A stretch of DNA of 64,000 bases from Fidelibacterota bacterium. GTDB taxonomy: Bacteria > Fidelibacterota > UBA2242. The translations under genes were made by a program, and so were the position numbers. The stretch spans positions 9,730 to 73,729 of the forward strand of contig JBAZPZ010000001.1 of the NCBI GenBank assembly GCA_041645495.1. Direction: 5' to 3'. A model generated the notes under the pieces. The model saw only the letters and a list, made by a program, of their open reading frames with translations, was not told the origin of the DNA and did no database searches. Of the stretch, positions 28,995 to 54,540 are shown piece by piece (position 1 is the stretch's first letter; each line of letters opens with the position of its first letter).

Positions 28995-30185
28995 TTATTC
29001 CAATATTTCGGTTACGACGCCGGCACCGACCGTCCGTCCGCCTTCTCGAATCGCAAACCGCAACTCTTTTTCCATCGCGATCTCCGTGATCAATTCTACC
29101 GTCACGTTCACATTGTCACCCGGCATCACCATCTCGATGCCTTCCGGCAAGGTCACGACGCCCGTCACGTCGGTCGTCCGAAAGTAAAACTGCGGACGAT
29201 ATCCCTTGAAAAACGGCGTGTGGCGGCCGCCTTCTTCCTTCGTCAATACATAAACTTTACCCAAGAATTTCTTGTGGGGCGTGATGCTCTTCGGCGCCGC
29301 GACTACCATGCCTCTCTGCAGCCAATCTTTTTCGATTCCGCGCAGAAGCAAACCAACATTGTCCCCCGCTTGGCCGCGATCCAACAACTTGCGGAACATT
29401 TCAACGCCCGTCACGACCGTCTTCTTGTAGCCGCCCAGACCGATAATCTCAACTTCTTCACCAACCTTGATGACGCCCCGGTCGATTCTGCCCGTGCCTA
29501 CCGTTCCGCGTCCCGTGATCGAAAAGACGTCTTCGATCGGCATCAGAAACGGCTTCTCGATGTCGCGCTTCGGTTCCGGTATGAAACTGTCAACCGCATC
29601 GATCAATTCCATGATGCACTTCGTCTTCTCCGGATCATCCGGATTGTTCAACGCTTCCAATGCGCTTCCCCGAATGATCGGCGTTGTGTCGCCCGGAAAA
29701 TTGTACTTGTTCAGCAAGTCCCTTAATTCCATCTCCACCAAATCTATCAATTCAGGATCATCTACCAGATCTATCTTGTTCAAAAATACTACCATGCTCG
29801 GTACATTCACCTGGCGTGCCAATAATACGTGCTCTCGCGTCTGGGGCATCGGGCCGTCAAATGCCGACACAACCAATATCGCGCCGTCCATCTGTGCCGC
29901 ACCCGTAATCATGTTCTTGATGTAATCCGCGTGTCCCGGACAATCCACGTGCGCATAATGCCGCTTCGGCGACTCGTATTCCACGTGCGCCGTATTGATC
30001 GTGATCCCGCGCGCTTTCTCTTCCGGCGCGTTGTCAATACTGTCAAATGTCCGTACATCCGCAAATCCTTGCTTATGCAAAACAAATGTCATCGCCGCCG
30101 TCAACGTCGTCTTCCCGTGATCCACGTGGCCGATCGTCCCTACGTTTACATGCGGTTTCGTCCGCTTAAATTGTTGCTTTGCCAT
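28995..30185 (-). CDS. tuf: Elongation factor Tu, str-operon copy (tufA position)
   Basis: The 396-aa ORF has the GTPase G1-G4 motifs and is identical in sequence to the copy at 44543..45733. Confidence 0.97.
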
Positions 30186-44241: not shown

Positions 44242-44294
44242 ACTCTATTCCCCTTTGTGAGGTGACATAAGCGATTCTGTCCAAAATTCGATTG

Positions 44295-44367
44295 CAGGTG
44301 AGGCAGGAATTGAACCCGCAACCCCCGGTTTTGGAGACCGGTGCTCTACCAATTGAGCTACTCACCT
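44295..44367 (-). tRNA. trpT: tRNA-Trp (anticodon CCA)
   Basis: Folded by hand. The acceptor is AGGTGAG/CTCACCT, the anticodon loop is CTCCAAA, the T-loop is TTCAATT, and the length is 73 nt. Confidence 0.85.
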
Positions 44368-44377
44368 TCATTGCCAT

Positions 44378-44527
44378 CTATCTGGTTTCCTTATGGACCG
44401 TATGTTTCTTACACCAACGACAATATTTCTTGTGTTCGACACGGTTCGGATGCAGTTTCTTATTCTTATCGGTCGAATAATTCCGCCGCTTGCAAACCGT
44501 ACATTCAAGGGTGATAATATCACGCAT
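44378..44527 (-). CDS. rpmG: 50S ribosomal protein L33 (zinc-ribbon form)
   Basis: This gene is not in the ORF track. My own translation gives [49 protein letters not shown] (49 aa), with four Cys. Confidence 0.85.
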
Positions 44528-44542
44528 CTTCGTTACCTTTGT

Positions 44543-45733
44543 CTATTCCAATATTTCGGTTACGACGCCGGCACCGACCGTCCGTCCGCCTTCTCGAATC
44601 GCAAACCGCAACTCTTTTTCCATCGCGATCTCCGTGATCAATTCTACCGTCACGTTCACATTGTCACCCGGCATCACCATCTCGATGCCTTCCGGCAAGG
44701 TCACGACGCCCGTCACGTCGGTCGTCCGAAAGTAAAACTGCGGACGATATCCCTTGAAAAACGGCGTGTGGCGGCCGCCTTCTTCCTTCGTCAATACATA
44801 AACTTTACCCAAGAATTTCTTGTGGGGCGTGATGCTCTTCGGCGCCGCGACTACCATGCCTCTCTGCAGCCAATCTTTTTCGATTCCGCGCAGAAGCAAA
44901 CCAACATTGTCCCCCGCTTGGCCGCGATCCAACAACTTGCGGAACATTTCAACGCCCGTCACGACCGTCTTCTTGTAGCCGCCCAGACCGATAATCTCAA
45001 CTTCTTCACCAACCTTGATGACGCCCCGGTCGATTCTGCCCGTGCCTACCGTTCCGCGTCCCGTGATCGAAAAGACGTCTTCGATCGGCATCAGAAACGG
45101 CTTCTCGATGTCGCGCTTCGGTTCCGGTATGAAACTGTCAACCGCATCGATCAATTCCATGATGCACTTCGTCTTCTCCGGATCATCCGGATTGTTCAAC
45201 GCTTCCAATGCGCTTCCCCGAATGATCGGCGTTGTGTCGCCCGGAAAATTGTACTTGTTCAGCAAGTCCCTTAATTCCATCTCCACCAAATCTATCAATT
45301 CAGGATCATCTACCAGATCTATCTTGTTCAAAAATACTACCATGCTCGGTACATTCACCTGGCGTGCCAATAATACGTGCTCTCGCGTCTGGGGCATCGG
45401 GCCGTCAAATGCCGACACAACCAATATCGCGCCGTCCATCTGTGCCGCACCCGTAATCATGTTCTTGATGTAATCCGCGTGTCCCGGACAATCCACGTGC
45501 GCATAATGCCGCTTCGGCGACTCGTATTCCACGTGCGCCGTATTGATCGTGATCCCGCGCGCTTTCTCTTCCGGCGCGTTGTCAATACTGTCAAATGTCC
45601 GTACATCCGCAAATCCTTGCTTATGCAAAACAAATGTCATCGCCGCCGTCAACGTCGTCTTCCCGTGATCCACGTGGCCGATCGTCCCTACGTTTACATG
45701 CGGTTTCGTCCGCTTAAATTGTTGCTTTGCCAT
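44543..45733 (-). CDS. tuf: Elongation factor Tu, second copy (tufB position, downstream of the tRNA array)
   Basis: The 396-aa ORF is 100% identical to the 28995..30185 copy. The antisense frames are identical too, so the nucleotide sequences are identical. Confidence 0.97.
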
Positions 45734-45750
45734 CGGTGCTCCTTAAGTTT
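44544..45750. repeat. 1207-bp perfect direct repeat, copy B
   Basis: See copy A; the offset between copies is 15548 bp. Confidence 0.85.
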
Positions 45751-45799
45751 TTATTTCTTCTCATTTTTTCTATTTGACGATTACTCCAAGTTTTCCATG

Positions 45800-45872
<73 letters not shown>

Positions 45873-45906
45873 ATTCAGTCTCAAATTCTCTCGTTTTCAA
45901 TGACCT

Positions 45907-45948
45907 TCCCGAAGCCTCGGGACGCTCTACCAACTGAGCTACTTGGGC
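45907..45948 (-). pseudogene. Truncated duplicate of the tRNA-Thr(GGT) 5' half (26 nt identical), followed by a GC-rich tetraloop hairpin; not a functional tRNA
   Basis: On the minus strand, GCCCAAGTAGCTCAGTTGGTAGAGCG is identical to nt 1-26 of thrT. It is followed by TCCCGAGGCTTCGGGA (a 6-bp stem with a GGCT loop). There is no anticodon arm or T-arm. Confidence 0.7.
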
Positions 45949-46027
45949 AACGAGTTCCAAGTTTTGGGTTTTGGATTCGGATAAAATCAGTGAACCTAAT
46001 CAACCATTCAACCCAATTTCTCAATCA

Positions 46028-46098
46028 ACTTTTTTGACCAGGCTGAGCGGGTGAAGGGGATCGGACCCTCGTAGCCAGCTTGGAAGGCTGGAGCTTTA
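46028..46098 (-). tRNA. glyT: tRNA-Gly (anticodon TCC)
   Basis: The acceptor is GCGGGTG/CACCCGC, the anticodon loop is CTTCCAA, and the length is 71 nt. Confidence 0.85.
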
Positions 46099-46106
46099 CC
46101 ACTAAG

Positions 46107-46189
46107 CTACACCCGCAAAAGAAGAGTGGGCCGGGATGGGTTCGAACCACCGTAGGCATTCACCGGCAGATTTACAGTCTGCTGCCATT
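46107..46189 (-). tRNA. tyrU: tRNA-Tyr (anticodon GTA), with a long variable arm
   Basis: The acceptor is GGGTCGG/CCGGCCC, the anticodon loop is CTGTAAA, and there is a 13-nt variable arm. The length is 83 nt. Confidence 0.85.
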
Positions 46190-46370
46190 AACCACTCGGC
46201 CACCGACCCACTAAGTATTTTTTGTTGATTTTTTTAGAAGAGGATTTTGAAAATTGTTTGAATCTTCAATCTGACACCTTCGAAAGCGTTTACTCTCTCC
46301 CAAAAAACCCGTCAGTCACGAGCATTGGTAACCGTCAAATCTCTATTTCAAATATCTTCATTTCAAACGT

Positions 46371-46443
46371 CGAGCCACCAGTAGGATTTGAACCCACGAC
46401 CCGCTGATTACAAATCAGCTGCTCTACCAACTGAGCTATGGTG
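46371..46443 (-). tRNA. thrU: tRNA-Thr (anticodon TGT)
   Basis: The acceptor is GCCACCA/TGGTGGC, the anticodon loop is TTTGTAA, and the length is 73 nt. Confidence 0.85.
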
Positions 46444-46740
46444 GCATTCATTTGTCAAACATTTCACCCGTCAGTTCCATCGGTCGCATCTCAACTGTCC
46501 GCGCTTTCCGGGCTACGGTAGCTATCAGTCTGCATTTAAAAAAGCCACGAAATTTACAAATAATTTTTCCCATAACAACAATATTTTTTCACTTCAAGAT
46601 CATTTTTTTGAGGACTTAACCGTCTCCAAACAATTTTTCAGTTCATTTTACTGATTACTGTCTATCGCTGAATCTTGATAATCCGCACGCCTTTGCTTTG
46701 ATGCCGCTGTCTATGCGTTTGAGAATATTTTCGATGGTTA

Positions 46741-47223
46741 TTAAAACGATTCCTTCCAAATCAAACGTGCCAGGAAATTGGCTATGTGTCCTTTAGTTTC
46801 GATTCCACGGTAATCATCGCGAAATCCGACTTGAATATTGACTGCATTACTCTGGTCTGGAGTGATGGAACCGATATACGTTGGGCTGAGCGAGTGCCAA
46901 AAGTTCAGATAGAATAATCGTTCGGATTGTCGCCCGCAAATCATTTTATCTGTCCTCAAACCGAGTTGGCGGAACAGTTCGCTGAACAGAATTCCGGTAC
47001 AGAAAACCTTGCTTTGTTTGCAGGTTTTGTACAAATCCTTGTAAGAACGGGAAAGTTTTGTTTTGACTTCATCCAGACGAAAGTCGGATTGATCGAAAAC
47101 AAATGCGAGCGCTTTTTCGTATCCCATCACTCCCAGCGGTTCAAGTTCAAACAATGCCCGAGTTCGATCAGTCTCGGTTTTCAGACTTTCAATCATCGTC
47201 CGAAAAAGAAGCCCGATTTCCAT
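46741..47223 (-). CDS. Hypothetical 160-aa protein; a standalone paralogue of the C-terminal domain of the REC-fusion protein at 50111..51652
   Basis: The motifs 'MGYEKALAFVF', 'LFYLNFWHSLSP', 'NIQ' and 'FLARLIWKESF' align with 'MPYEKMLATLF', 'RYFYQNLWHSIFP', 'NIQ' and 'FLARLIWNESFT' of the 513-aa protein. Confidence 0.6.
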   Translation of the reverse strand: MEIGLLFRTMIESLKTETDRTRALFELEPLGVMGYEKALAFVFDQSDFRLDEVKTKLSRSYKDLYKTCKQSKVFCTGILFSELFRQLGLRTDKMICGRQSERLFYLNFWHSLSPTYIGSITPDQSNAVNIQVGFRDDYRGIETKGHIANFLARLIWKESF

Positions 47224-47241
47224 GCTTAAACCCGATTAACC

Positions 47242-49542
47242 TTACCCGAGTCTTACATCTTCCATCTGGATTTGATAATACTCAAGAAACCGTCTCGCTT
47301 TATCCGCAAGAAACGCCCATTCTGATTCGAACTCTTCGAAGCGTTCTTCGAGAATCTTTAGCGCGATTGCTGTTGCGACGATATCTTTTGCATTTACCAA
47401 ACGCTCATGGATTTCATGGATGGCGGTCAGAACTGTTGCCGTGTCAATTTTTGAAATAACTAGCAGATCATTATTCAACTCCCAGTGCCCGTCGGCTTTC
47501 TGAGACTGAATAAGTCTCATCATTTCCTCGTGGTTTTCATTAACAATTGAAGGAGTAGGAGATGCCATTCGTTTTCTTGAAAATTTTGGTATATCGGGTG
47601 TATGTGAGCACAGATTACTTATCGCGTCGAAAGCGACATCGTGGTCTTCTATTACTAATGGACGATAAACAGATTCCATTTTTTTTCTAATGAATGTGGG
47701 CATTTTTGTTTCCTCGACTGCTCCATAGTTTTTTGTCAGTTCTATGGGAACTCGGCGGAGTTCAGGTTGAGTCGAGGCAACTGCGGCTTTACGCCTCTCG
47801 ATGCCAATAAAACTAGTTAGCGAATTGACTAAATTGTACTGACGTCCAAGTTCTATAATTTGTTGGTTGATCATCTTATCCGTTCTATCAGATTGGCTTG
47901 AGCCTCGATGCGCAGAAGCAGGATTTTCCTCCAAATCCCGGACTAGTCGGCGCGCCATCAAAGTCGGAACCGCTGAGTGTTCTTGGACAGTATCCGGTGA
48001 GATGGTGAACTGCCAGTCAAAAGTACATTCTCCGGATTTTGCCTGCAGATGAACATCAGCCTCAATAAGTTCGTTCAATCTGGCAAACATGGTTAGGCGG
48101 TCACCTGAGAAAAGATTGTCGATCTGAGTTGGTGTCTGGCGTATAGGTTCCATCGGGGACCAATCAAGTTTGATAGATTCAAAATGAGGCGAACGGGTTC
48201 GTTGAAAATGGCGCAGGATTTTCGGTTCAATGCGTTCACCCGGAAAAATAAACTCAGCGAAATCACCGGTGGATCGTGCCAACCCTTTAAGGAAATATTG
48301 ATTCACACCGCGACCGATACCGACCGGAAACAGATGACATGAATTCCGATATTTATTGACAAGACTGATGACTTCCGGCTCATTTCCGATCTCACCATCG
48401 GTAATCAGCAAGATCGCTTTGGATGCGTCGCTTTCCTTCTTCAATATATGCTCCAAGGGGGAGAATACTTCTGTGCCGCCCAGGTCCGCCTTAATACTCT
48501 GTGTATGCGAAATTGCCATATCGAGATTTTTCTGAGTATAATCAACCGCTGAATGAAACAATGACCGATAGGAACTCCCGAACTCGATCACTTGGAACCG
48601 GTCACCTTCCCGCAAAGAATGCAGACAGATTTGAAGCGCGTTTTGTGCTTGAGCGATACTTTCGCCAATCATCGACCCGGAACAATCGAGCAGAAAAATG
48701 ACTGTCCGGTTTGCTTTGAGCAGTACGTCGATCTGAGGGGTAAAATTCATCATCGCGACGAAGCCGGAATCGACGTCTTTCGCTAAAACGACAGAAGGCT
48801 CCTCTGGATCCTTTTTTCTGAGAACCAACACAAAATCCTGATTCAACTGAGTCGTTTCAGTTCCAAGAGAAATGACGGCTTCGTTATGAATCGTTTCAAT
48901 ACATATTGGATGTGAGGGTGACTGAAAGGACTGGAATTTATCTGCCTGCCGGACATGAATCTTCAGTTTCAAACCATAAGGCAATTCGCCAGCCACTGTT
49001 GGCGGGGATATATGGTCGATGAGCGCCGGGTCGCTTTCCGAAAGGGTTTTAGTCGGGAGATAACGCGGTGATATAGTTGTTGGCAAGAAAAAGCGAATGC
49101 CATCTCCTTCGGAATCTAATTCCATGACGTATTTGATTTTAACGAGCACAGATTGTTTCGGTAACAAATTGCCGATGCTGGCGGTGAAAATGTTCGGCCT
49201 GTCCTGGTCCAGTAAAAATGCACCCCAGCCTTTGGAAATTGATTCGTCGTATTTTTCAAATGCCGCTTCTTTCTCATCGACTTTTGCGACGATAGTCTTA
49301 TCGTCGGTTTCCACATCGAAACCGCAGACGGCGGCAGATTCGGGAAGTGGAAACGAATACACTGCTTCAATCGCTTTTTCTTCGATGTTCTGATAGCGCT
49401 GCTGTACCTCGACTTCTGCGGAAAAGTCGTCGATATGCGCTTCGACACTGACACCGCGCAGGGGAACTGGTGTCGCGTTATCTGCCTGAAACACGCCGAA
49501 ATACTTTTCATCGTTGGAAAGATGAGAACTCTTATTCAACAC
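47242..49542 (-). CDS. Cytoplasmic VIT (vault/inter-alpha-trypsin) plus von Willebrand factor A domain protein, with a ~300-aa C-terminal region of unknown function
   Basis: The 766-aa ORF has no signal peptide. It has an N-terminal VIT pattern, and a vWA domain with the MIDAS motif 'LLDCSGSM' and 'LITDGE'. Confidence 0.7.
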   Translation of the reverse strand: MLNKSSHLSNDEKYFGVFQADNATPVPLRGVSVEAHIDDFSAEVEVQQRYQNIEEKAIEAVYSFPLPESAAVCGFDVETDDKTIVAKVDEKEAAFEKYDESISKGWGAFLLDQDRPNIFTASIGNLLPKQSVLVKIKYVMELDSEGDGIRFFLPTTISPRYLPTKTLSESDPALIDHISPPTVAGELPYGLKLKIHVRQADKFQSFQSPSHPICIETIHNEAVISLGTETTQLNQDFVLVLRKKDPEEPSVVLAKDVDSGFVAMMNFTPQIDVLLKANRTVIFLLDCSGSMIGESIAQAQNALQICLHSLREGDRFQVIEFGSSYRSLFHSAVDYTQKNLDMAISHTQSIKADLGGTEVFSPLEHILKKESDASKAILLITDGEIGNEPEVISLVNKYRNSCHLFPVGIGRGVNQYFLKGLARSTGDFAEFIFPGERIEPKILRHFQRTRSPHFESIKLDWSPMEPIRQTPTQIDNLFSGDRLTMFARLNELIEADVHLQAKSGECTFDWQFTISPDTVQEHSAVPTLMARRLVRDLEENPASAHRGSSQSDRTDKMINQQIIELGRQYNLVNSLTSFIGIERRKAAVASTQPELRRVPIELTKNYGAVEETKMPTFIRKKMESVYRPLVIEDHDVAFDAISNLCSHTPDIPKFSRKRMASPTPSIVNENHEEMMRLIQSQKADGHWELNNDLLVISKIDTATVLTAIHEIHERLVNAKDIVATAIALKILEERFEEFESEWAFLADKARRFLEYYQIQMEDVRLG

Positions 49543-49993
49543 GGTTTTTCTCCTTTATTGGGTTTATAAATATTATTCCTAATTGATTCTTGAGATAGGT
49601 TGAGATTTCAATCAACACCGACGGCGCTGGGACTTTGACAGGGTGCGAAAATTCCAGTGTGAGTCCTTCGGTGATGCGGACACGCGTGACGATTTCCCGC
49701 GTCGGAGTTTCGATAATTGGTTCCGGCTGTTCCGAATTCAAATGCACGGCCTGTCGGAGCAAAATTCCCTGCTTCTGAAGATCGCGCAAGCGGGCGATCT
49801 GCGTCAAATGCTCGTCTGTGTAATAACTACCCCGTCCAAGTCCAACCGGGGGTGACATCAAGGCGTTCTGCACGTAAAAACGCACGGTGCGGCGACTGAC
49901 TCCCGCCAGCTCCGCCAATTCTCCGATCTTGTACTGTTTTTCTTCTTTCATGGCTTGAATATAACACTTGACTGTCGCATTGTCAAGTGTCAT
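49532..49993 (-). CDS. MerR-family transcriptional regulator
   Basis: The 153-aa ORF has the N-terminal HTH 'YKIGELAELAGVSRRTVRFY'. It overlaps the start of the VIT-vWA gene by 11 nt. Confidence 0.7.
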   Translation of the reverse strand: MTLDNATVKCYIQAMKEEKQYKIGELAELAGVSRRTVRFYVQNALMSPPVGLGRGSYYTDEHLTQIARLRDLQKQGILLRQAVHLNSEQPEPIIETPTREIVTRVRITEGLTLEFSHPVKVPAPSVLIEISTYLKNQLGIIFINPIKEKNRVE

Positions 49994-50110
49994 ATTAAAA
50001 ATATTTATTTGTGGATACTGGCTTAGGAGAATTCTTAGTGAGGATATTTAATTGTACTGGCGGTTTGTCCAGATCGCTGGTATTGATGAGTTTGAGAATA
50101 CCGTTGTCGG

Positions 50111-51652
50111 TTACGTAAACGATTCGTTCCAAATCAAACGTGCCAGAAAATAGGGAAACGAATTGTCCTGTATATTTACCCGTTCGAATTTAACAAGCAT
50201 CAGAATCGAATCTTTTCCTTCCATCGGATCTTTCACACATAGCTTAGCAGGGAAAATGCTGTGCCAAAGATTTTGATAGAAATATCTCTTTGCGTTTTGG
50301 GCGACAATATTTTTTAAATCCGGATCGGATTCTCTTCTCAAAGAGTTACCAATACCCTCAAGCAATTGATTGAAAAAGTTACCGTCCGGATAAATTTTAT
50401 TATCTTCTAAAAAACGTTTTAAATCACAATATGATTGCAGAATGGCTTTTCTGATTTGGTTATCATCAAGAACTTCAACAGGTTCAAAGAGCGTAGCCAA
50501 CATTTTTTCATAAGGCATTCTTTGGTTGAATTCAAGATTGAACCAGGCGCGCATCGCAATCATAAAAAAGAACGCTGCGTCCTTCGGACACAAATCGTCC
50601 GCGATCTGGCCATGAGACGACCAGTTTCGCAATAATTTCATCTGCCGCTCATAGTTGTTCTTGAAACGGTATTCAATGTCAAAGTTTGATAAATGCTCAA
50701 TAAAATGACCGGCGCTCATTTCCCATTCGGCGGATAGTTCTTTGATGAACTGATAATAGAGTGACTCAGCGTTTTCCGGCGGATTCAGCGGGAAAAAATT
50801 CTCCAGCTTTGACAGATAATCGCGGATATATTCCTTTTCAATTTTTGAATCTGTTGTTCTGTTGAAAAGAATCCACTCAGCGATTTCTTTTTCCAGCCGG
50901 TCTTTTAAATAACGGCAGGCATTGATGATTCCCCTTCTCAGTGCAATGTACGGAAAGTGCGCTCCGCGTTTAGTCAGGCGATTGTCGAGCCAGGCATGGA
51001 AATTCGCGACGTCGCTCTTGTGAATCGAAGGTGCCAATTCGGATAAAGCATCACAAAATTTTTCCTCAAAACGGTCATAAAGGTCTTTATTGGTTTCTCC
51101 GGCTTTCATCTTCCGAATGACTTCGGTTAGAAACTCATTTATCCGCTGAATATTGCCCATCGTCTGATATTCCTGCAATATTTCATCAAACGCCTCGTTG
51201 TCCGGGTCAGAAAGCAACTCTCTGATTTTTGCGATAATACCTATAAAATGCTCGGGATTTTTTGTTTCCAGCAGACGGTCTTTATAGGTTTTGACCCGGT
51301 AACCATTGGAAGCATGTCCTGTCAGGAAAACAATCCGGTCGTTATGAAATCCTTGCCGTATTAGCTGCTGATAGAGATAAAATCCGGACTCCTCGAGAAA
51401 CTCTGTATTTTTTCGCCCAAATTCATGGGCAATTTTTCTCACCAATTCCGTTTCCGGAAAATCTTTCAGATTAAGGTCGAATACGACAAGATCATATTCC
51501 GAAGTCGCTCTATGAATAGCGGCGTAACAGTCATCAAAATTGCGGGGAATATCCAGCCGGTTTACTTCGTCGGTGAAAAAACCGCTTTCCTGAAAGAGGA
51601 TACGGTCTCTTTGATCACCCTGCGGGGCGTCTTCGATCCAGAGAATGTTCAT
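50111..51652 (-). CDS. Response-regulator receiver (REC) domain protein fused to a ~400-aa domain of unknown function
   Basis: The N-terminus 'MNILWIEDA...DLVVFDLNLKD' is a CheY-like acidic pocket and phospho-acceptor Asp pattern. Its start overlaps the upstream kinase gene in an ATGA arrangement. Its C-terminus is paralogous to the 160-aa protein. Confidence 0.6.
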   Translation of the reverse strand: MNILWIEDAPQGDQRDRILFQESGFFTDEVNRLDIPRNFDDCYAAIHRATSEYDLVVFDLNLKDFPETELVRKIAHEFGRKNTEFLEESGFYLYQQLIRQGFHNDRIVFLTGHASNGYRVKTYKDRLLETKNPEHFIGIIAKIRELLSDPDNEAFDEILQEYQTMGNIQRINEFLTEVIRKMKAGETNKDLYDRFEEKFCDALSELAPSIHKSDVANFHAWLDNRLTKRGAHFPYIALRRGIINACRYLKDRLEKEIAEWILFNRTTDSKIEKEYIRDYLSKLENFFPLNPPENAESLYYQFIKELSAEWEMSAGHFIEHLSNFDIEYRFKNNYERQMKLLRNWSSHGQIADDLCPKDAAFFFMIAMRAWFNLEFNQRMPYEKMLATLFEPVEVLDDNQIRKAILQSYCDLKRFLEDNKIYPDGNFFNQLLEGIGNSLRRESDPDLKNIVAQNAKRYFYQNLWHSIFPAKLCVKDPMEGKDSILMLVKFERVNIQDNSFPYFLARLIWNESFT

Positions 51653-54153
51653 TGCTCTTTCTCCTTGTTGAGTTGTTTTGCCAGAAGCTCAAAATCCAAT
51701 TCCGTTTTTGGTTTATATGGCACGAAAATATCTTTCAGAAAACGAAACGTCACCTGGAATTTTCCGTTTTCTTCACGCCAGGTAAAGACTTTGTCTTTTT
51801 CCCGAATGTCATTCAGCATTTCAAGGTCGTTTTGAATTCCCTCCAACCCTTTTCCAGTACTAATCGATACGTTTTGTGTGTAGGGATTTTCCCACTCGCA
51901 TACCAGGAACGTCCGGTTTTCGATTTCCTCTTCGTGAAATCTAACATCAATCCAGATATCTTGTTCAATATCACGGTATTTCAGCGCATTGAACAGCAAT
52001 TCCTGAAAATAGCCCTGAAGCAAGGCTTCCGAGTAGCCGTCACGCCGCAGACGAATCGCATTCCAGAGCGGACTCAGCGTACAATCAATCCTGCCAATGT
52101 TGGCACTCGCCCATTCGATGGCACTGCGGTTGGGATTGAAGAAGACGTTCTCTTCAAAATCCACTCTTAGCTGGTCTAAAGTTGTTCCCCGCCGGGCGCA
52201 GATTTGCGTGCGAATTGGGTCTAATTTCCGGTAATCCGCATTCAGGAAGCGGGCGACGATGCGTTGAACAGAACTATTCAGGATTTCCTTTATGCTGATT
52301 GCCTTTTCCGTCATGTCTTCTGGCAGACGATCACCGCGGATCAACTGCTGAAATTCCGCTGGATTGCCGGTATTACGTGCCTGCAGAAGCAAACCCTGAT
52401 TTCGAATAATCGTCTCGGCGAGGTAAGCGTCGGTCAATATCCGAGCATCGCGACGGAATTCGATGTGACTCTTGAGGCGATTGGCAACCTCGTAAATCGC
52501 ATTCGGATAAAGCGTATTCGCTAACGTATGCGAATACTGTTGGATCATGCGCTCTTTTTCGCGACGATGATGCTCTGCTTGCCGTGCTAATTCTTCTTTT
52601 TTTTCATCCTCATCAGACCTTCTCTTTTCCTCCGTAATCTGAAAAATTCGTTCATTCAGTTTCACTAAAATACCGATATATAATTTAGACTTTAGAATAA
52701 CATCTGAAGTGTTCGCACTTTTAGGTTTTTGATATTCGTATATAGTATTGTCCACCCCATCCGGTAGAACTTCATTTCCAGATCGATCAAGTTCTCCCGC
52801 TGGTTCAAGCTTAGACGGAATTATTGAGTCGCCGAAGAAATTTTCCAGAATGAGTGATTTAATATTAAGCGTATAGAGTTCTCGTCCCTTGTTACCAAAG
52901 TGCTGAAGATACTCATCCAGGATAAAATCCAAATTTTGGCTGAATTTATATTGTGGGAATTTCAACTCTAATAGAAAATCCAGTTCTCCAAAATCTTCGG
53001 TTGGTTTTAACTCACCACCAGGGTTAACTAAATATTTAATAATGCTGTCTTCATCTCCGAGTCCTTGAACTTCCAAAGATGAAAAACCGAATATTTTGTT
53101 GCATATCGAATAGAACTGTTCAAGCGAAGCGAACAAACAAGAGTCACCAATGGCTCCAATTATATCAGGTAATATTTGTGGCAATGGTGAGATAAAATTT
53201 TCCGAAAATAAAGCAACCTCAATAGATAAAAAATCTTTAGGCTTATTAGGTATATTGCTGATAAAAGCCTTCAAATTATTTTCATAGAGATCTTTTTCTC
53301 TGTTTCGCAAATAAATGTATGAAAGGTAAGCAGGAACAGCCCACTTGACATACATCATATAAACTTGGGGCATACTTTCTGCTACCTTTAAATCTTTTAG
53401 AAAGGATTGCAATTGCAGAAAATCACTTAAGGCTAAGTTGAAATTTTCTGCTTTCAAATAGCACTTGGCTCGATTATAGAGAACTTCTGGTTTAAATTTA
53501 TCCTTTAAAATTATTGAAAAATCTTTACCGGCTTTTTCATACTCATCTAAAATAAAAAATAATTTTGCTCTTTTTTCATAGGAAATTGAATCAGGTTCAA
53601 TTTCAATAGCTTTTGTGTAGGCTTCCACCGCCTTGCTATATTCTCCTCTAATTCTATTTTGATCTCCAAGTTTTATCCAACCGGATTTCAATTTTGGATC
53701 AATTTTTACAGCATTAGAAAAATCATTTAATATCTCATTATCTGGCATTTCCATCGGATCCAGCAAAGCATTTCTGACACTTCCTCGAAAGTAATAGTAT
53801 TTGGCAACATTCGGATTCAATTCTATTGCCTTATTAAAACTATTTATCATACAGCCATATTCATCCTTATCCCTCCAAAGCCAAAACAAATCCTTTGGTC
53901 TATCACACCAAAGGATCAATCCTTTTAAAAAGTAATATTCTGCATAATTGGGATTTAAACTGATAGCCTGATCTATATCTCCATGCGCCTCATCAAACAT
54001 TCCTTTATCTTTGTAAGCAATCGCCCTCATGTAATAGTTGTCAGGATTTTTACTGTCTTTTTCAATGAGTTTGCTCAATTCCTCAATTGAAAGATTTTTC
54101 ATGCCATCACTTTTCATTTTTTTATCTCCGCCATTGGATTGCAATTTTCCCAC
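51649..54153 (-). CDS. Cytoplasmic TPR-repeat protein fused to an atypical histidine-kinase-like (GHKL) ATPase domain
   Basis: The 834-aa ORF has ~400 aa of N-terminal TPR repeats and a coiled coil. It has a candidate H-box 'QQYSHTLANTLY', an N-box 'ELLFNALKY' and a G-box 'STGKGLEG'. No TM segments are present. The TPR-encoding half is AT-rich. Confidence 0.55.
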   Translation of the reverse strand: MGKLQSNGGDKKMKSDGMKNLSIEELSKLIEKDSKNPDNYYMRAIAYKDKGMFDEAHGDIDQAISLNPNYAEYYFLKGLILWCDRPKDLFWLWRDKDEYGCMINSFNKAIELNPNVAKYYYFRGSVRNALLDPMEMPDNEILNDFSNAVKIDPKLKSGWIKLGDQNRIRGEYSKAVEAYTKAIEIEPDSISYEKRAKLFFILDEYEKAGKDFSIILKDKFKPEVLYNRAKCYLKAENFNLALSDFLQLQSFLKDLKVAESMPQVYMMYVKWAVPAYLSYIYLRNREKDLYENNLKAFISNIPNKPKDFLSIEVALFSENFISPLPQILPDIIGAIGDSCLFASLEQFYSICNKIFGFSSLEVQGLGDEDSIIKYLVNPGGELKPTEDFGELDFLLELKFPQYKFSQNLDFILDEYLQHFGNKGRELYTLNIKSLILENFFGDSIIPSKLEPAGELDRSGNEVLPDGVDNTIYEYQKPKSANTSDVILKSKLYIGILVKLNERIFQITEEKRRSDEDEKKEELARQAEHHRREKERMIQQYSHTLANTLYPNAIYEVANRLKSHIEFRRDARILTDAYLAETIIRNQGLLLQARNTGNPAEFQQLIRGDRLPEDMTEKAISIKEILNSSVQRIVARFLNADYRKLDPIRTQICARRGTTLDQLRVDFEENVFFNPNRSAIEWASANIGRIDCTLSPLWNAIRLRRDGYSEALLQGYFQELLFNALKYRDIEQDIWIDVRFHEEEIENRTFLVCEWENPYTQNVSISTGKGLEGIQNDLEMLNDIREKDKVFTWREENGKFQVTFRFLKDIFVPYKPKTELDFELLAKQLNKEKEQ

Positions 54154-54320
54154 CTAACCAGCACAACACCGACTTCGAAAGATGTGATGCCGGCACTTAA
54201 TGTAATCCTTACCCCAAATAAATAGTTTATAATCAAAGCAAAATAGAGAAAACCGAAAATTCTGAGTTCTCCCGACCAGGTCGTTTCTGTCTGTTCTGTT
54301 TCAATTTTCAGGATTTTCAT
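54114..54320 (-). CDS. Possible small membrane protein (68 aa) upstream of the TPR-kinase gene; could be spurious
   Basis: It has one hydrophobic segment. It overlaps the annotated kinase start by 40 nt, but does not overlap if the kinase starts at the internal Met codons at 54117 or 54102. Confidence 0.2.
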   Translation of the reverse strand: MKILKIETEQTETTWSGELRIFGFLYFALIINYLFGVRITLSAGITSFEVGVVLVRWENCNPMAEIKK

Positions 54321-54540
54321 GTTTTCTTCTTTTTGCTACTTTTGCTTCATGTTTTCAAATGTCGATCTCACTTATGCAATTAATAAACCAAAACCAAATT
54401 TCATGTCCCTGACGTACAATTTTCCCGATTCGCCCGATAGAAAAAATGAAATGTAATGGTTATATCCAAGAAGTCGGTAGTTCTGAACCGGTAAAAATCT
54501 TTACTTTCATCTGTCAAAATTTTTTCAACCCAAATTGTCT

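Follow-up and report, generated by a model that had tools for sequence, protein, structure and literature searches.

In a 64,000-nucleotide (nt) stretch of DNA from a Fidelibacterota bacterium (contig JBAZPZ010000001.1 of GenBank assembly GCA_041645495.1, positions 9,730 to 73,729 of the forward strand; hereafter the window), a gene for a MerR-type helix-turn-helix (HTH) protein lies directly upstream of a gene for a protein with a VIT and a vWA domain, head to tail on the minus strand. Homologs of this pair occur across many phyla, and the MerR gene accompanies only VIT-vWA genes without a hydrophobic N-terminal segment. We tentatively favor the view, with confidence a little short of even, that the two genes form a self-contained, horizontally spread cassette in which the MerR protein would repress its own operon and the VIT-vWA protein would be a scaffold that serves both as the output of the operon and as the protein ligand of the regulator.

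The longest open reading frame (ORF) for the MerR-type protein spans 49532–49993 (−; 153 aa), and a first-pass annotation of the window had placed the start codon at 49993. That start was not borne out. NCBI annotates an identical protein of 139 aa, labeled as Fidelibacterota (Marinimicrobia), from the ATG at 49951, and the segment 49952–49993, which had been taken as coding, holds the promoter and candidate operator described below; for both reasons the gene is probably 49532–49951 (−; 139 aa), and we number the protein from this ATG. Evidence for the gene comprises a Pfam MerR_1 match, an alignment with CueR, the identical NCBI protein, and an alignment of 27 partner proteins encoded next to VIT-vWA homologs. 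The VIT-vWA gene (47242–49542, −) starts with GTG and encodes 766 aa, as supported by Pfam domains, NCBIfam, an alignment of homologs, a match to PARP4, an AlphaFold model, and Foldseek. As read from the sequence, the junction between the genes (49532–49555, −) contains a perfect AAGGAG Shine-Dalgarno sequence (49550–49555) 7 nt before the GTG (49540–49542), which gives the VIT-vWA gene its own ribosome-binding site, and the MerR stop codon TAA (49532–49534) ends 8 nt past the GTG, producing an 11-nt overlap. Because of this overlap and the AAGGAG sequence before the GTG, the two genes are probably operonic and translationally coupled, and the earlier proposal that they share an operon agrees with both the junction and the conservation of the pair. 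Among eight homologous pairs with called genes, five junctions overlapped (by 4, 4, 7, 8, and 17 nt) and the others had gaps of 23, 46, and 54 nt.

MerR–VIT-vWA pairs were found in genomes of many phyla rather than in this genome alone. A MerR homolog lay directly upstream on the same strand at 27 of the 80 genome loci that encode VIT-vWA relatives, or at 27 of the 33 loci examined. This arrangement held for all 15 close homologs (30–45% identity) for which upstream DNA was present and for 14 of 24 distant relatives (22–29% identity) on IMG/VR contigs, and a MerR gene was called upstream in 5 of 7 long contigs. When the search was made with the MerR protein only, each of the three MerR homologs was followed downstream by a VIT-vWA gene. 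A hydrophobic N-terminal segment was predicted for none of the 27 MerR-linked VIT-vWA genes and for 34 of the 46 that are not linked to MerR (Fisher P 6e-11); by this sequence criterion, linkage to MerR is a mark of the cytoplasmic forms. All-against-all clustering of the ORFs flanking 33 loci yielded only MerR, VIT-vWA, and antisense shadow ORFs, with no third conserved gene. An AAA+ ATPase partner, as in systems that combine a vWA protein with a MoxR-type ATPase (BatA/ViaA-like), was neither adjacent in the window nor conserved across the same 33 loci.

Several features of the 766-aa protein indicate that it is cytoplasmic. A longer N-terminus is impossible, given the in-frame TAA five codons before the GTG. 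The N-terminus is hydrophilic, no hydrophobic segment was found (the maximum 19-residue Kyte-Doolittle score over the whole protein was 1.28), and the sequence contains no lipobox, LPXTG motif, or ITIH-type DPHF site. All 32 aligned homologs likewise have a short N-terminus before the VIT domain. The first-pass annotation had predicted a cytoplasmic protein without a signal peptide, and this prediction held: the in-frame stop precludes any alternative start that could supply a signal peptide or lipobox.

A cytoplasmic VIT-vWA protein is not, as the first-pass annotation had supposed, an unusual one. An intracellular clade of such proteins that includes PARP4, VWA5A, Dictyostelium Vwa1, and some bacterial proteins has been described (PMC10539598), and a profile of the family searched against all solved structures matched PARP4 residues 607–1185 (E 3.6e-117, 396 bits) far more strongly than the secreted ITIH proteins (ITIH4, E 1.3e-39; ITIH1, E 3.9e-36). 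By sequence, the protein is thus a member of the intracellular VWA5A/PARP4 clade, with PARP4 rather than VWA5A as the member compared directly. A database search with the protein returned more than 1,400 relatives, of which the best 120 were ~740–850 aa long, were 35–45% identical with 76–100% query coverage, and came from Acidobacteriota, Desulfobacterota, Planctomycetota, Myxococcota, Gammaproteobacteria, Cyanobacteria, and candidate phyla. Viral contigs in IMG/VR held only distant relatives (22–29% identity), with no phage hallmark genes by Pfam at two loci, and a plasmid search found only secreted sortase-target relatives (25–28% identity). Exact-sequence look-ups of the proteins P0001 and P0121 found no record of either.

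The domain layout of the protein is that of the clade. A VIT domain (aa 29–138; 49129–49458, −; Pfam VIT, E 1.3e-33) is followed by a vWA domain (aa 281–430; 48253–48702, −; Pfam VWA_3, E 8.7e-17, and VWA). The five MIDAS (metal ion-dependent adhesion site) residues are all present (D286, S288, and S290 in DCSGS 286–290, T357, and D382) and are invariant in 32 aligned homologs, so that the metal-binding motif is, as previously noted, intact by sequence. Conservation among the homologs extends from the VIT domain to a motif at about residue 600 (ELRRVP..LT.GWG), beyond which a variable linker leads to a conserved domain of ~100 aa (Q-x-A-D-G-S-W ... E-W...K-A..W-L). The 300 residues after the vWA domain, which the first-pass annotation had regarded as an extension of unknown nature, resolve into three standard parts of the clade. 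The first is a post-vWA module (aa 431–601; 47740–48252, −), a beta sandwich with helices at 524–569 and closing strands that rejoin the VIT sheet; it falls within the matches to NCBIfam TIGR03788 (to aa 602), PARP4 (to profile position 581), and the ITIH1 structure, and this module is named in the description of the clade's architecture (PMC10539598). The second is a disordered, poorly conserved linker (aa 602–663; 47554–47739, −), with predicted local distance difference test (pLDDT) values below 50 for residues 602–666 and variable, gappy alignment columns. The third is a helical C-terminal domain (CTD; aa 664–755; 47278–47553, −) with the motifs Q-x-x-D-G-x-W and E-W...K-A..W-L. A full-length AlphaFold model (pLDDT 80; predicted template modeling score 0.80) contained the VIT sandwich, the vWA fold, the post-vWA sandwich and helices, disorder at 602–666, and a helical domain at 664–755. 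Foldseek aligned this model to ITIH1 over 604 columns (E 7e-34) and to a VWFA protein of the Trypanosoma axoneme over 871 columns.

The 766-aa protein has the order of a disordered loop followed by a conserved helical CTD that is characteristic of the VWA5A/PARP4 clade. Its architecture is identical to that of Dictyostelium Vwa1 (DdVwa1) and VWA5A, for which the C-terminal helical bundle has been proposed to dock on the vWA domain in an autoinhibition model (PMC10539598). For similar docking in the 766-aa protein, the predicted template modeling score of 0.80 is at most suggestive. When a profile of the CTD alone was searched against the PDB, the top match was PARP4 1574–1642 (E 0.0038), within the MINT domain. 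A structure model of the CTD alone was confident (pLDDT 92.5), its MINT relationship in Foldseek was not significant, and a Pfam scan of the domain found no family. We regard homology of the CTD to the PARP4 MINT domain as likely but weak. The MINT domain anchors PARP4 to the major vault protein. The CTD is common, with 5,004 representative clusters at E ≤ 0.001. As a separate observation, some proteins (P0161–P0170 of a representative library) consist of tandem arrays of this domain, the largest number being 18 copies in a protein of 2,589 aa, and the scanned arrays contained no recognizable Pfam domain. Short proteins that seemed to consist of the CTD only were set aside: of six scanned, three are gene fragments with part of a vWA domain, and the other three gave no informative Pfam match.

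Upstream of the MerR gene is a sigma-70-type promoter (49958–49986, −) with TTGACA at 49981–49986, a 17-nt spacer, and a TG-extended TATATT at 49958–49963, matching 11 of 12 consensus positions in a promoter scan. The ATG at 49951 lies 6 nt past the −10 hexamer, and this distance of only 6–7 nt implies that the mRNA would be leaderless. At 22 of 27 homologous loci we found a sigma-70 match of at least 10/12, mostly with a 17-nt spacer (16–18 nt in homologs with a clear promoter), and at 18 of the 27 an in-frame start codon lay 6–7 nt after the best-scoring −10 match. The homologous spacers contain inverted repeats of the GACAGT..ACTGTC type, and in many cases another GACA(G/C)T adjoins the −35 hexamer. 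GACAGT/ACTGTC occurred at 16.2 per kb in 80-nt promoter regions vs 0.36 per kb in the surrounding DNA (45-fold; Poisson P 5e-45), and the window's 64 kb contain a single instance of the composite motif, at 49976. The consensus across loci was gacaC-TTGACA-tTA.gACAGt..AgTGT-TATAaT-....CC-ATG, and a signature of approximately GACAC-TTGACA-N5-GACAGT-N2-4-A(C/G)TGT-TATAAT-N6-ATG could help to reassign MerR start codons and to identify additional members.

The best operator candidate in the window (49955–49999, −) centers on a perfect inverted repeat, ACACTTGAC-N9-GTCAAGTGT (9-N9-9), at 49964–49990, which is extendable to 18-nt arms and for which 0.01 occurrences are expected by chance. GACA(G/C)T half-sites are present at 49986–49991 and 49971–49976, with an inverted half-site at 49964–49969. 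This putative operator includes an inverted repeat between −35 and −10, as in the MerR family; the over-long 19–20-nt spacer of that family is absent, since the spacer in the window is 17 nt. The first-pass annotation had instead drawn attention to a AGAATTCT palindrome flanked by CTTAG repeats. These elements are indeed present (50028–50035 for the palindrome; 50022–50026 and 50034–50038 for CTTAG). As an operator, the palindrome fails: with 243 perfect 8-bp palindromes in the window, 0.44 would be expected in a segment of 117 nt, so its occurrence is at chance level, and no GAATTC was found upstream in 13 close homologous loci.

The HTH of the MerR protein scored 55.9 bits against Pfam MerR_1 (cut-off 21.6). 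The protein comprises the HTH and wing (aa 7–70), a Pro-rich variable linker, and a conserved C-terminal region of ~50 aa. In the alignment of 27 partner proteins, linker length ranged from ~10 to >100 aa and the C-terminal region followed the pattern W.R..l.pGvEL.v......l..l....l, whose sequence suggests a strand-strand-helix arrangement. Homology to solved MerR proteins was restricted to residues 8–71, to which CueR residues 3–66 aligned, and all such matches ended at about residue 66–73, where the dimerization helix would begin. Pfam and NCBIfam detected no domain beyond the HTH and thus no effector-binding site, the 139 residues include no cysteine, and no conserved metal ligands were seen in the protein or the 27-partner alignment. 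The protein therefore appears to lack the long coiled-coil dimerization helix and effector region of its family and to have a cassette-specific C-terminal domain instead. Weak NCBIfam similarities of the HTH were to the ZntR, CadR, CueR, TnrA, and HspR models; the scores for the metal sensors (ZntR, CadR, and CueR) were far under the cut-offs and covered the HTH only. In PADLOC-DB 2.0, the MerR protein matched only the HTH of mad1 (E 5.5e-9).

Classical MerR proteins activate transcription by distorting DNA at promoters with 19–20-nt spacers. The protein in the window resembles CueR, ZntR, and BmrR in its homologous HTH and wing and in the repeats between −35 and −10, but it differs from them in lacking the long dimerization helix, the effector pocket, and the cysteines, and in having a protein of the same operon as its predicted partner. 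Their spacers are 19–20 nt vs 17 nt here, where the likely mode is repression. Other MerR-type factors are controlled by partner proteins: TnrA and GlnR by glutamine synthetase and HspR by DnaK. These are short proteins with a C-terminal tail that docks the protein that alters DNA binding. Their partners, however, are enzymes or chaperones encoded elsewhere, and there is no similarity outside the HTH, so the parallel is an analogy only.

In the mechanism that we propose, the MerR protein would bind the GACAGT-type repeats and repress its own leaderless operon. We favor repression rather than activation by DNA twisting because the hexamers and their spacing are already optimal and a protein bound in the spacer should block RNA polymerase. 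The VIT-vWA protein would be translated from the internal Shine-Dalgarno sequence that overlaps the end of the first gene, and scaffold that is free would contact the regulator through the latter's C-terminal domain and maintain repression of the promoter. This contact would change, and expression would rise, once the MIDAS face captured a target protein or the tethered domain was released; the resulting feedback would respond to engagement of a target by the scaffold. We infer that the VIT-vWA protein is a binding scaffold because its MIDAS is intact, it has a docking domain on a tether, and a catalytic domain is absent. By analogy with the partner-controlled factors above, the scaffold is probably the protein ligand of the regulator, given that the regulator subfamily is dedicated to it, that the sensor region has been swapped for a cassette-specific domain, and that translational coupling is frequent.

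Several points weigh against the proposed cassette mechanism. Binding of MerR to the repeats, repression, contact between MerR and the VIT-vWA protein, and the identity of the signal are all things that we infer. The only known target of the cassette is the cassette itself, so there is no clue to its physiological output, and the scaffold has no enzymatic domain. A Gloeomargaritales homolog (P0019) and a near-identical protein (P0020) have the VIT-vWA gene without a MerR gene, and therefore the scaffold can work without the regulator. Nor is translational coupling universal, given that two of the five pairs on long contigs have gaps of 23–54 nt between the genes. Finally, the exact operator geometry in the window is uncertain, because its spacer repeat (GACAGT-CA-AGTGTT) is an imperfect one and the half-sites paired in its best inverted repeat differ from those paired at most loci.

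A plainer explanation is that MerR is an ordinary autoregulator or activator without a physical link to the scaffold, which would perform a housekeeping role as an assembly factor, adaptor, or metal-dependent chaperone. Autoregulated operons that combine a regulator and its cargo are common, other bacterial cytoplasmic vWA proteins are assembly factors, four of the seven neighborhoods looked up through VIT-vWA homologs were housekeeping in character, and the Gloeomargaritales homologs have no MerR gene. We regard this as a serious though unlikely alternative. It does not account for a MerR subfamily dedicated to the VIT-vWA partner (3/3 reciprocal) or for the replacement of the usual effector and dimerization region by a cassette-specific domain; moreover, the frequent start/stop overlap suggests matched synthesis, and a patchy spread over unrelated phyla together with a portable promoter is unlike housekeeping. 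That same patchiness would suit an unrecognized anti-phage or conflict system, in line with the conflict or stress role toward which the first-pass annotation had pointed. In such a system the regulator would silence the operon, and the VIT-vWA protein would use its MIDAS to sense or trap a protein of the invader and might recruit host factors through the CTD. The cassette is sporadic across phyla, and its promoter, being self-sufficient, near consensus, and leaderless, would function in many hosts. Three of the seven neighborhoods contained NERD, a Schlafen-type helicase, PemK, a caspase, an AAA_15+DUF4276 pair, or insertion sequence (IS) elements, and one further locus adjoins a DEAD/YjiV helicase and a PDDEXK nuclease. 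Distant MerR-linked pairs are also present on IMG/VR contigs, the cassette in the window sits in a variable block adjoining a tRNA cluster, and some relatives have FHA or kinase-like extensions. We nonetheless consider a defense role rather improbable: the VIT-vWA protein had no match in PADLOC-DB 2.0, it carries no toxic or enzymatic effector domain, most neighborhoods are unremarkable, and the two IMG/VR loci that were checked have no phage hallmark genes. A search of PHROGs returned nothing informative.

Two further explanations conflict more directly with the anatomy of the proteins. If MerR were a classical activator, responding to a metal, oxidant, or drug by untwisting the promoter for the VIT-vWA gene, repeats between −35 and −10 would be in the hallmark position of a MerR operator, and the weak NCBIfam similarity to ZntR, CadR, and CueR would be expected; yet the spacer is 17 nt (16–18 nt in homologs) instead of 19–20 nt, the metal-sensor similarity is confined to the HTH at scores far under the cut-offs, and the protein has no cysteine, conserved metal ligands, or coiled-coil helix. 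We consider this activator model highly improbable. We give next to no weight to the idea that the VIT-vWA protein is an adhesin, secreted or on the surface in the manner of ITIH and the sortase targets, with MerR as an unrelated neighbor. The sortase-target model TIGR03788 does match the protein with 332 bits over aa 33–602, and homologs bear the JGI label 'Ca-activated chloride channel family', but that score is under the cut-off of 551.65, and the idea is contradicted by the in-frame stop just upstream, by the lack of a hydrophobic segment, LPXTG, lipobox, or DPHF, by the short N-termini of all 32 homologs, and by the exclusive association of MerR with signal-less forms. In a broader and speculative extension, which we think quite unlikely, the cassette would belong to a widespread, unnamed prokaryotic sensor or immune module in which a MIDAS scaffold with a tethered docking domain recognizes a protein that is foreign or damaged and signals to a dedicated DNA-binding partner, and which would be a bacterial forerunner of VWA5A and of the VIT-vWA-MINT portion of PARP4.

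VWA5A is a tumor-suppressor candidate, and PARP4 is the vault poly-ADP-ribose polymerase. The bacterial protein resembles PARP4 in the VIT-vWA region and weakly in the MINT domain, but it lacks both the BRCT domain and the PARP catalytic domain, and a major vault protein is neither known nor adjacent. It shares the VIT-vWA fold with ITIH heavy chains and marine sortase-target proteins, as indicated by the Foldseek match to ITIH1 and the 332-bit TIGR03788 score; those proteins differ in being secreted, in carrying signal peptides and covalent-attachment signals, and in having no linkage to a MerR gene. The eukaryotic proteins VWA5A/BCSC-1 and Dictyostelium Vwa1 act with ubiquitin-ligase receptors (FbxwD and SPSB1) and without a DNA-binding partner (PMC10539598); the MerR partner, shared operon, and promoter/operator of the bacterial protein are features that PMC10539598 does not mention for VWA5A or Vwa1. 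We found no published description of a MerR and VIT-vWA pairing in the searchable literature, which covers few subscription-journal papers, so that this absence is not proof. Relative to that literature, the dedicated gene pairing, its restriction to cytoplasmic forms, and the promoter/operator/leaderless design across phyla are new; the protein clade and MerR autoregulation are of kinds already known. A compact bacterial version with a dedicated regulator, a defined candidate operator, and thousands of variants may provide a tractable system for studying scaffold binding and its control by the CTD.

Some relatives depart from the two-gene arrangement or from the usual domain content. A Gloeomargaritales genome locus (L081) that is surrounded by IS elements and a JGI metagenome contig (L084) that encodes a near-identical protein have neither a MerR gene nor a GACAGT promoter upstream, which suggests loss of the regulator from the cassette in this lineage. 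At distant MerR–VIT-vWA pairs on two IMG/VR contigs (L093, 3134–9697; L097, 5421–12049), three ORFs that match in size between the contigs (~270–286, 400–412, and 400–406 aa) follow the VIT-vWA gene; these trailing ORFs have no Pfam domains, and this subfamily may have extra partners. The VIT-vWA-type protein P0064 has an FHA domain (Pfam) as its C-terminal module, and at L075 (5944–9135) the C-terminal region resembles a protein-kinase C-lobe motif by eye, without Pfam confirmation. The two modules hint at a link to phospho-signaling.

In the window, the cassette is flanked by two genes related to each other. A 160-aa ORF (46741–47223, −) lies 18 nt downstream of the VIT-vWA gene. It shares 32% identity (E 6e-17) with the last 145 aa of a 513-aa ORF (50111–51652, −) just upstream of the MerR promoter; both end with FLARLIW(K/N)ESF. 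The cassette thus sits between a full-length gene and a paralogous C-terminal fragment, as if inserted into, or replacing part of, a tandem duplicate. The region 50111–54153 (−) also encodes an 834-aa protein with N-terminal TPR repeats (Pfam) and a C-terminus that by eye is like a degenerate histidine kinase. Its gene overlaps that of the 513-aa protein, whose N-terminus resembles a receiver domain by eye, by 4 nt. The kinase-like and receiver-like regions had no Pfam, NCBIfam, or PADLOC match, and the 834-aa and 513-aa proteins may be an uncharacterized two-component-like pair. The 513-aa, 834-aa, and 160-aa proteins were rejected as parts of the cassette, as no homologs were found in any related locus. 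GC content is 0.33–0.36 over 52500–54500, which spans the 5′ half of the 834-aa gene and DNA upstream of it, vs 0.42–0.50 in the flanks. The block 46741–54153 adjoins five tRNA genes (44294–46445), a typical variable, insertion-prone site. Two ORFs in the window have the same length of 396 aa, at 28995–30185 and at 44543–45733 (−). The latter reads as EF-Tu and lies within a tRNA-tuf-secE-nusG cluster; the former, which is beside a 698-aa ORF, is probably a second tuf copy.

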